A program made the translations under genes and the position numbers. Below the pieces are notes generated by a model. The model had not been told where the DNA came from. It worked only from the letters and a program-made list of their open reading frames with translations, and searched no databases. A stretch of DNA of 64,000 nucleotides from assembly GCF_001447785.1 (NCBI RefSeq), contig NW_015161468.1:67971-131970 (forward strand), written 5' to 3'. Below are positions 54,075-56,415 of this stretch, one piece after another (position 1 is the first letter of the stretch; the number at the start of each line of letters is the position of its first letter). The stretch comes from Gekko japonicus (Eukaryota).

Positions 54075-55513
54075 CTGAGGAGGAAGGGAATTAAAATGCC
54101 ATCAAGTTGGGAGGCCCACAACGTTTGCAATTGAAGAACCCACAGGTGTGCATGGCCTGAAATGACTCACTCGACACTGCAAAGGGACGGGGCAATTGGC
54201 CAAGGAGGACTGTCGGGCTTGTTGTAAGTGGGACGGCAGGATTTCAGTTTGGTGCTTGCTGGGGGCATACTTTTGTGGAATGAGGGAATCAAAGGTGGCC
54301 CTTCCAAATGAGGCAGGGCACAGCAAAAGGGGCTGGCAGCTCATGACCCCCTTCCGTTCTGAGGACCATGGAGCTTCAAGGGGAAGGGGAATTCCTCCAG
54401 TGGGTGAGGCTTGGAAAGAGCTTTGGTCTGTCACTTCTGTTCCCATCGCCCTGACCACTACATGCTGAGCATCCGCAGGCAGCCCCTCGCCAGTTCTGTT
54501 CCGATGATCGCCCTGCCCGCTACATGCTGAGCATCTGCAGGCAGCCCCTCCCCTGTGGCGCCTTCTGCAGAGAAAGACGGTTGGTGCCCTCCAGTGCTCA
54601 TTCGTGATGCTGCAGGCTGGTTCTCAGGCCTTTCGGCACCCCCTCCCCTCCCCACCCCACTCCAGTCAGCACAGAGTGGCAATGATTTTTCTCACCGGGC
54701 TTTGGGGGCGGGACAGGGGGTACTGGAGACGAGGGATGAGATTCCAATTGGAAATGTCTCACTGCCCCACTATGTTTCACCCCTTCTCCAAATGGGCCCT
54801 GTTTTCCCCTCTCCACTGGGGATGACTTTGTTCCTTCGACTGGGAACAGCCACCCCTGCCCAGGGTGGGCTAGCGGTCGGAGGACTGGGAGGACCTTGAG
54901 CTCGTCACATCATCGACCTCCCAACTCTGGTGAGGCTAAAGATGAAGGAACGAGGTAAGCTGCTCTGGGTCCCCACCGGGGTACAAATGAGGCAAATAAA
55001 CAAACCAATTCATCCCAACTCATCTTCAGCAAAGCTTTTCCCGAATGACTCCAGAGTCGCCCCCTTCCCCTCACCACGGTCCCCTGACTCCTCCTTTGCA
55101 GTAGTATGTCCGAAAAGGATCTAGGGGTCTTAGTAGACCATACACTGAACATGAGTCAGCAGCAAGATGCAATTTGGGGTCAGGAAGCAACCTTCTGGGT
55201 GTGGAACAGTGGCCACTGGCGGATGTGGAGGGGGGAGGTATTTGTGAATTTCCTGCCTTGTGCAGGGGGTTGGACTAGATGACCCTGGAGATCCCTTCCA
55301 ATTCTGTGTTTCTATGATTGCTCAAAATAAAAGGCCAGTCCACACTTTAAACCATATGCATTACAAGTTCTGGAGAAAATCCAGACATTTCGTTTGCCCG
55401 ACGTTCCCCCAAGGCCGCCCTGTGTCTCTCCCCCCCCCACCCCTGACCGCTGTAACTCCCATCTGCTGCGGCGGCCCTGGCTGGAGAGCGCTCTGCCACC
55501 TTGGGCCTCTCAC

Positions 55514-55669
55514 CTGTTCGCCATCCTTGGGACAGACGGTGGTGCAGGCTCTGTCGGGTACTTCTGGCAATCAGAGCGGCCAGATCCTCAAAGTTCAAGA
55601 TGAACATGATGACAGCACCGTCCTCGTTTTTCACTGGGACGACGTCCACCAGACACCGGATACACGATG
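55514..55669 (-). CDS. KCNH6: KCNH6 exon 3, second identical copy B
   Basis: Same 156 nt and same splice sites as 56205-56360. Which copy is used cannot be told from the sequence. Confidence 0.75.
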
Positions 55670-56204
55670 CTGTCATGAAAAAGGAGAGAGAGAGAGAGAA
55701 ATGAATGAGGAGAAATGAGCCCAACAGTAAATAAAGAACTGTCAACGCCCGTGTCCTCCTGTGCTGGGACTTCCCCTGAAGTGACTGTGATTTTAATGTG
55801 CCCTTTGATAACCTCCGAGCTGAGTGCTTAGTTCTTGTGGCCCTTTTTTACATGCCCAGGGAAATGCTGATTGCCACTTTGGGGTCAGGAAGCAACCTTC
55901 TGGGTGTAGAACAGAAGCCACTGCAGGTGTGGAGGGGGGAGGTATTTGTGGATTTCCTGCCTTGTGCAGGGGGTTGGACTAGATGACCCTGGAGGTCCCT
56001 TCCAATTCTATGTTTCTATGATTGCTCAAATTAAAAGGCCAGTCCACACTTTAAACCATATGCATTACAAGTTCTGGAGAAAAACCGGACATTTCATTTG
56101 CCCAGGCCGCCCTGTGTCTCTCTCCCACCACCCCTGACCGCTGTAACGCCCATCTGCTGTGGCTGCCCTGGCTGGAGAGCGCTGTGCCACCTTGGGCCTC
56201 TCAC

Positions 56205-56360
56205 CTGTTCGCCATCCTTGGGACAGACGGTGGTGCAGGCTCTGTCGGGTACTTCTGGCAATCAGAGCGGCCAGATCCTCAAAGTTCAAGATGAACATGA
56301 TGACAGCACCGTCCTCGTTTTTCACTGGGACGACGTCCACCAGACACCGGATACACGATG
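56205..56360 (-). CDS. KCNH6: KCNH6 exon 3 (PAS/PAC C-terminal half), upstream copy A
   Basis: Encodes (A)[51 protein letters not shown], the ERG PAC motif. Acceptor ttttcatgacag, donor G|gtgaga, 156 bp, phase 1-1. Confidence 0.9.
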
Positions 56361-56415
56361 CTGTCATGAAAAAGGAGAGAGAGAGAGAGAAATGAATGAG
56401 GAGAAATGAGCCCAA

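Follow-up and report, generated by a model that had tools for sequence, protein, structure and literature searches.

Two identical copies of KCNH6 exon 3 in the Gekko japonicus draft assembly, a candidate false exon gain or an ordinary tandem duplication

The stretch of the Gekko japonicus draft assembly analysed here, 64,000 nucleotides long and referred to as the window, carries exon 3 of the ERG-type channel gene KCNH6 twice. The duplication is established for this assembled sequence, in which two head-to-tail copies, 55170-55724 and 55875-56415, align over 555 columns. Within them 231 nt are letter-identical (55494-55724 and 56185-56415), comprising 20 nt of donor-side intron, the 156-nt exon and 55 nt of acceptor-side intron, and the remaining 324 alignment columns contain 19 substitutions and three indels (1, 12 and 1 nt). 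The arrangement is about as likely to have arisen by a false exon gain as by an ordinary tandem duplication, and under every reading the locus belongs to a known kind. The parts of the two copies are as follows.

55514-55669, minus strand: KCNH6 exon 3, copy A; 156 nt, phase 1-1, encoding residues 104-154 of the matching protein model
56205-56360, minus strand: KCNH6 exon 3, copy B; letter-identical to copy A
55494-55724: identical block of copy A; donor side to +20, exon, polypyrimidine tract, acceptor side to -55
56185-56415: identical block of copy B
55170-55493: diverged flank A; CR1-like 3' end to about 55320, followed by unique intron
55875-56184: diverged flank B; 19 substitutions and 3 indels relative to flank A

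Both exon copies are preceded by AG and followed by GT, both have an open frame in phase 1-1, and the intron between them is 535 nt long (GT...AG). The original prediction, made from the sequence by eye, had described twin 156-bp exons in phase 1-1 with intact AG/GT, and its coordinates and splice sites are borne out; its identical stretch of about 230 nt measures 231 nt by alignment, and its adjoining 320 nt or so, with roughly 20 substitutions and an indel of about 12 nt, correspond to the 324 columns and their 19 substitutions and indels of 1, 12 and 1 nt.

The gene is identified as KCNH6 (ERG2, Kv11.2) by a protein search in which the top named matches are gecko KCNH6 proteins (98%, 94% and 90%), refining an earlier assignment to an ERG gene that had correctly recognised an ERG-type channel. 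The exon peptides of the window are identical to the G. japonicus RefSeq model XP_015284614.1, setting aside intron run-in at alignment edges, and the exon 3 peptide is identical to residues 104-154 of that model. Residues 97-845 of gecko KCNH6 models were placed within the window, with the downstream exons in order on the minus strand; exons 1 and 2 of KCNH6 were not found within the 64 kb, and the number given to exon 3 follows the ERG gene structure as we understand it. The matching model has Pfam domains PAS_9 (36-132), Ion_trans (257-519) and cNMP (613-694), and since the PAS_9 match ends at residue 132, slightly more than half of the exon (104-154) belongs to the PAS domain and the remainder to a linker. 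The exon peptide also has matches among solved PAS structures (12 sequences), where it corresponds to hERG residues 104-131. The earlier label of a PAS-domain exon is accurate for the first 28 or so of the 51 whole codons, which lie within the PAS fold, and inaccurate for the rest, which encode linker. Among the best 120 of 719 matches, most of the KCNH6 models from reptiles and birds belong to one of two length classes (about 1062-1070 aa and about 1195-1220 aa), and the full-length gecko models among those seen are all in the short class.

The exon peptide is present once in seven of seven full-length gecko KCNH6 models (from a cluster of ten, the other three being partial proteins without the exon), and the gecko models XP_015284614.1 (G. 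japonicus) and XP_054849477.1 each contain it once. A doubled exon peptide was found in 0 of 144 exon-matching proteins, the G. japonicus model included (148 proteins compared, among them the best 120 of 719 matches), and a short-fragment protein search covering 20 of 26 candidates gave none above 93% identity to the exon and none in which it was doubled. All examined gecko KCNH6 models have a single copy of the exon, whereas the window has two. These single-exon counts come from predicted protein models, to which a second genomic copy is invisible, and as an argument for assembly error they are weak. A full-text search of the open-access literature for KCNH6 with "exon duplication" gave no match.

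The asymmetry between identical block and diverged flanks is real and requires homogenisation of some kind. When the 22 differences were placed at random 200,000 times (permutation), 13 of the placements left a run of at least 231 identical positions; in the 2-kb duplication of the same window, described below, the longest identical run is 79, inside the expected 70-142. Divergence is 6.1% in the flanks and 3.5% over the whole duplicate, and at the flank rate 14 differences would be expected per 231 nt. Under full protein constraint, 38.7 synonymous and 75 intron sites are left, in which 7.0 differences are expected and none is seen (P0 = 7.5e-4 at the flank rate and 0.003 with core splice signals removed; 0.007 and 0.018, respectively, with the lower rate taken from the 2-kb duplication). 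Synonymous sites taken alone are unremarkable (P0 = 0.087 to 0.18). The original prediction had explained the asymmetry by selection on both copies or by gene conversion, and the asymmetry itself is indeed beyond chance, but selection is the part that fares badly, accounting for the identity of the exon only loosely and fitting the whole 231-nt block poorly. Conversion, allelic mosaicism or consensus collapse is a better fit, because selection leaves the identity of the whole block unexplained. The locus resembles what is generally known of gene conversion between tandem duplicates in having a long identical tract within otherwise diverged copies, ending at a boundary of heterology; conversion would require the gecko copies to be older than the tract, and an assembly collapse would look alike.

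The head-to-tail junction lies at about 55815/55816, and the following elements surround it and the outer ends of the duplicated unit.

55100-55169, plus strand: LINE ORF2-like piece joined directly to the repeat 3' end; 11 of 17 residues match the ORF at 47394-48302 (E 2e-6)
55725-55815: spacer part 1; about 80 nt present only beside copy A, closing with an 11-nt word found again at 56492-56502
55816-55874, plus strand: spacer part 2; CR1-like, present only before copy B; 55824-55895 matches the copy at 5351-5422 (75%)
56416-56491, plus strand: 5'-truncated SINE 3' end; 91-94% identical to three other copies in the window and standing where copy A has the 80-nt unique stretch

The 150-nt spacer consists of the unique stretch of A, the 11-nt word common to the right flank and the repeat extension of B, and the same 11-nt word, at 56492-56502, directly follows the SINE piece beside B. 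At each of its outer ends the duplicated unit has a structural change specific to one copy, and the SINE boundary is exactly where the identical tract stops. On the B side, about 80 nt appear to have been replaced by the SINE piece, and on the A side an internal deletion of several hundred nucleotides from the repeat is probable, because A jumps into the ORF2-like piece where the CR1-like repeat of B continues. We take the repeat beside the copies to be CR1, and the truncated SINE piece is presumably a Sauria SINE. The long ORF at 47394-48302, used for comparison with the ORF2-like piece, gave no Pfam match. A crossover between two different CR1 copies is disfavoured, A and B having the same unusual internal structure when set against the copy at 5351-5588, and a target-site duplication was rejected, as the SINE sits outside both copies.

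The reading ranked first is a false heterotype duplication, in which two divergent alleles were joined end to end by the assembler; judgement rather than calculation gives it an even chance of being correct. Mis-assembly of divergent haplotypes had been kept as a live option in the original prediction, and the layout fits it. Under such a mis-assembly the genome would hold a single exon 3 in the form of two divergent alleles, the first running from the left flank through a deleted CR1, copy A and the 80-nt unique stretch to the right flank, and the second from the left flank through a longer CR1, copy B and the SINE piece to the right flank. These two structural differences would have broken the assembly graph on either side of the exon, and the assembly may then have followed allele 1 slightly beyond the point at which the alleles rejoin before restarting, through a mis-join, inside the repeat of allele 2. 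The exon block would be identical because it is homozygous or because a collapsed node was used twice.

A false duplication is favoured by the junction: the aligned block is bounded on either side by a structural change found in one copy, and the spacer is composed exactly of copy-specific pieces and the shared 11-nt word. The layout is similar to that of the "flanking contigs" type (Box 1 of 10.1101/2020.05.22.110833), which retains the divergent arms but collapses the homozygous sequence, and false exon gains at homozygous/heterozygous boundaries have been documented (PMC9516828). The layout of the gecko locus would fit a position where homozygous sequence meets divergent sequence and each end carries a haplotype-like arm, but a real duplication could give it too. 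The window is also part of a gapped draft, with three N runs and, 4.6 kb from the doubled exon, 26 exact 107-nt repeats that are probably a gap-filling loop. Two further points are weak: the G. japonicus model XP_015284614.1 has the exon once, models being predictions, and the other 94% duplication of the window has diverged alike (19/541 versus 84/1958), as one haplotype pair would have, in a test that is non-significant (p = 0.47).

Against a false duplication stands the absence of an N gap between the copies, the N runs of the window being confined to 3321-3461, 7701-8664 and 51309-52053, whereas false duplicates are described as mostly gap-separated and only sometimes joined by wrong gap filling (PMC9516828). 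A gap in read depth is the other form that such a separation may take, so the lack of an N run does not by itself speak decisively against a false duplication. The divergence of 6.1% in the flanks (3.5% overall) is also far above the heterozygosity of 0.22-0.95% in the three species of that study, in which false duplicates were only 1.5-1.8 times more heterozygous (PMC9516828). A heterozygosity figure for G. japonicus was not found, and titles and abstract openings yielded nothing on a sex-chromosome or hybrid origin of divergent alleles in this species. The locus shares with published false heterotype duplications and false exon gains the similar copies side by side, the divergent arms around an identical core and the gene models with one exon, but differs from them in its gapless copies and in a divergence above the published cases. 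Of the five other head-to-tail duplications in the window, three show 81-89% identity and are too diverged for alleles, so that real tandem duplication is common in this sequence, and a run of 11 nt beyond the point where the alleles would rejoin does not point plainly to an assembler.

Among 24 sequencing-run entries matched with 281 words, two DNA-like runs contained shares of 0.53 and 0.40 of the words and one unclassified run 0.28, the other indexed entries containing at most 0.15; no RNA run was among these 24 entries. Losing the sequence specific to one copy would remove about 0.16 of the 281 words, and the word shares fail to separate a real from a false duplication, because allelic divergence (2-3% if contigs are complete) or incomplete contigs are needed either way.

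Somewhat short of even odds, again by judgement, is a real local duplication in tandem, about 0.7 kb long and probably neutral, that was either homogenised later or derived from allelic unequal crossover, with one copy used or both used at a tolerated level. In one form the duplication would be old: the repeat of A would later have suffered a deletion, a SINE would have inserted next to B, and the identity of the exon block would be due to gene conversion or consensus collapse; in the other it would have arisen by unequal crossover between two diverged alleles. A real duplication agrees with the gapless head-to-tail junction and with the five other head-to-tail duplications, at 81-98% identity, in 64 kb. 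The end of the identical tract at the SINE boundary is like that of a conversion tract limited by heterology, the divergence of the flanks is similar to the distance of the SINE piece from its relatives (91-94%), and an in-frame symmetric exon would be the most tolerable kind to duplicate. This history demands, however, two independent structural changes near the outer unit ends (59 nt and 11 nt inside), while the indels of the 2-kb duplication are no longer than 8 nt, together with a separate homogenising event, and the protein model of G. japonicus itself uses one copy.

The use of copy A or of copy B produces the same mRNA and no change in the protein, so the earlier suggestion of alternative exons A or B is not supported. 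Because A and B are letter-identical, the locus is not a duplicated-exon substitution event. Only joint inclusion of both copies would alter the protein, adding 52 aa in frame, as the original prediction had correctly worked out (156 = 52 x 3, phase 1-1). Three mechanisms of exclusion have been described, namely a donor-to-branch distance below 50 nt, a length not divisible by 3 and a U2/U12 mismatch (PMC5740500), and none of them applies to an intron of 535 nt, an exon of 52 x 3 nt and identical GT-AG sites. If the duplication is real, joint inclusion would be favoured by exon definition, since the splice sites are intact and identical, the frame is kept and none of these three exclusion mechanisms applies.

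Tandem duplicated exon substitution events involve exons that differ in a homologous stretch, are mostly ancient and are enriched in voltage-gated ion channels (PMC9741552; PMC5740500). Like these events and like mutually exclusive exons, the gecko locus consists of adjacent homologous exons that agree in length and phase, have intact splice sites and belong to a voltage-gated channel gene, but its copies encode the same residues and are free of steric, frame or U2/U12 exclusion. Most published events are ancient (PMC9741552), whereas the gecko doubling is unseen in the examined protein models of relatives. The main text of PMC9741552 makes no mention of "KCNH" (0 occurrences), although its supplementary event lists could name a KCNH gene.

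It is improbable, in our judgement, that the duplication is a real and selected double exon, in which both copies are spliced in and KCNH6 carries 52 further residues behind an intact PAS domain, with altered gating or trafficking. The extra residues would repeat the last two strands of the PAS domain together with the linker, would be kept identical by conversion, and would follow an already complete PAS domain rather than rebuild it; as a spare hairpin they could enter the PAS sheet by a swap, or could make the tether to the CNBHD longer. Such a channel would be consistent with the splice sites and branch-point region, which are identical and intact, with the preserved frame and the absence of the three exclusion mechanisms considered, and with the docking of PAS on the CNBHD that regulates the gating of ERG1 (ERG1a; PMC9113952), a role assumed here to carry over to gecko KCNH6 by analogy. 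It presupposes, however, that the duplication is real, the repeated peptide is found in 0 of 144 matching proteins, the G. japonicus model included, and selection at the protein level explains the intron and synonymous identity poorly.

The readings differ in what they would mean. An assembly error would make the locus a clean warning, with a false copy of an exon sitting without a gap inside a conserved channel gene, and a real and neutral copy would be an ordinary young exon duplication. Double inclusion is the only reading that would matter biologically, as a natural insertion variant beside the PAS domain of an ERG channel. It would represent an early stage of exon duplications that later become mutually exclusive, caught before the copies diverge, and would offer a natural probe of PAS-dependent ERG gating.

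Other repeats were observed elsewhere in the window. The 2-kb duplication (12272-16232) is a head-to-tail duplication of about 1980 nt in a KCNH6 intron, with 84 substitutions and 16 indels evenly spread and a 1-nt spacer; it begins inside a LINE frame and may be either a real old duplication or a second allele pair. A tandem duplication of about 320 nt (11473-12108, 89%) lies in a LINE frame with a Pfam RVT_1 match, and shorter head-to-tail duplications are present at 2378-2581 (101 nt, 98%), 54432-54556 (about 60 nt, 85%) and 59515-59866 (170 nt, 81%). At 60999-63820 a 107-nt unit is repeated 26 times with no differences, its start not being found elsewhere in the window, and this array has the look of a loop made in gap filling, or else of a minisatellite of very recent origin. 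The N gaps are irregular in length (141 nt at 3321-3461, 964 nt at 7701-8664 and 745 nt at 51309-52053), marking a scaffolded draft. Self-complementary sequences at 31730-31853 (87% over 124 nt) and 48537-48699 (91% over 164 nt) are possibly small hairpin transposons, and an AT-rich run of broken plus-strand frames at 38433-43578 presumably resembles LINE-1-type ORF1 and ORF2.
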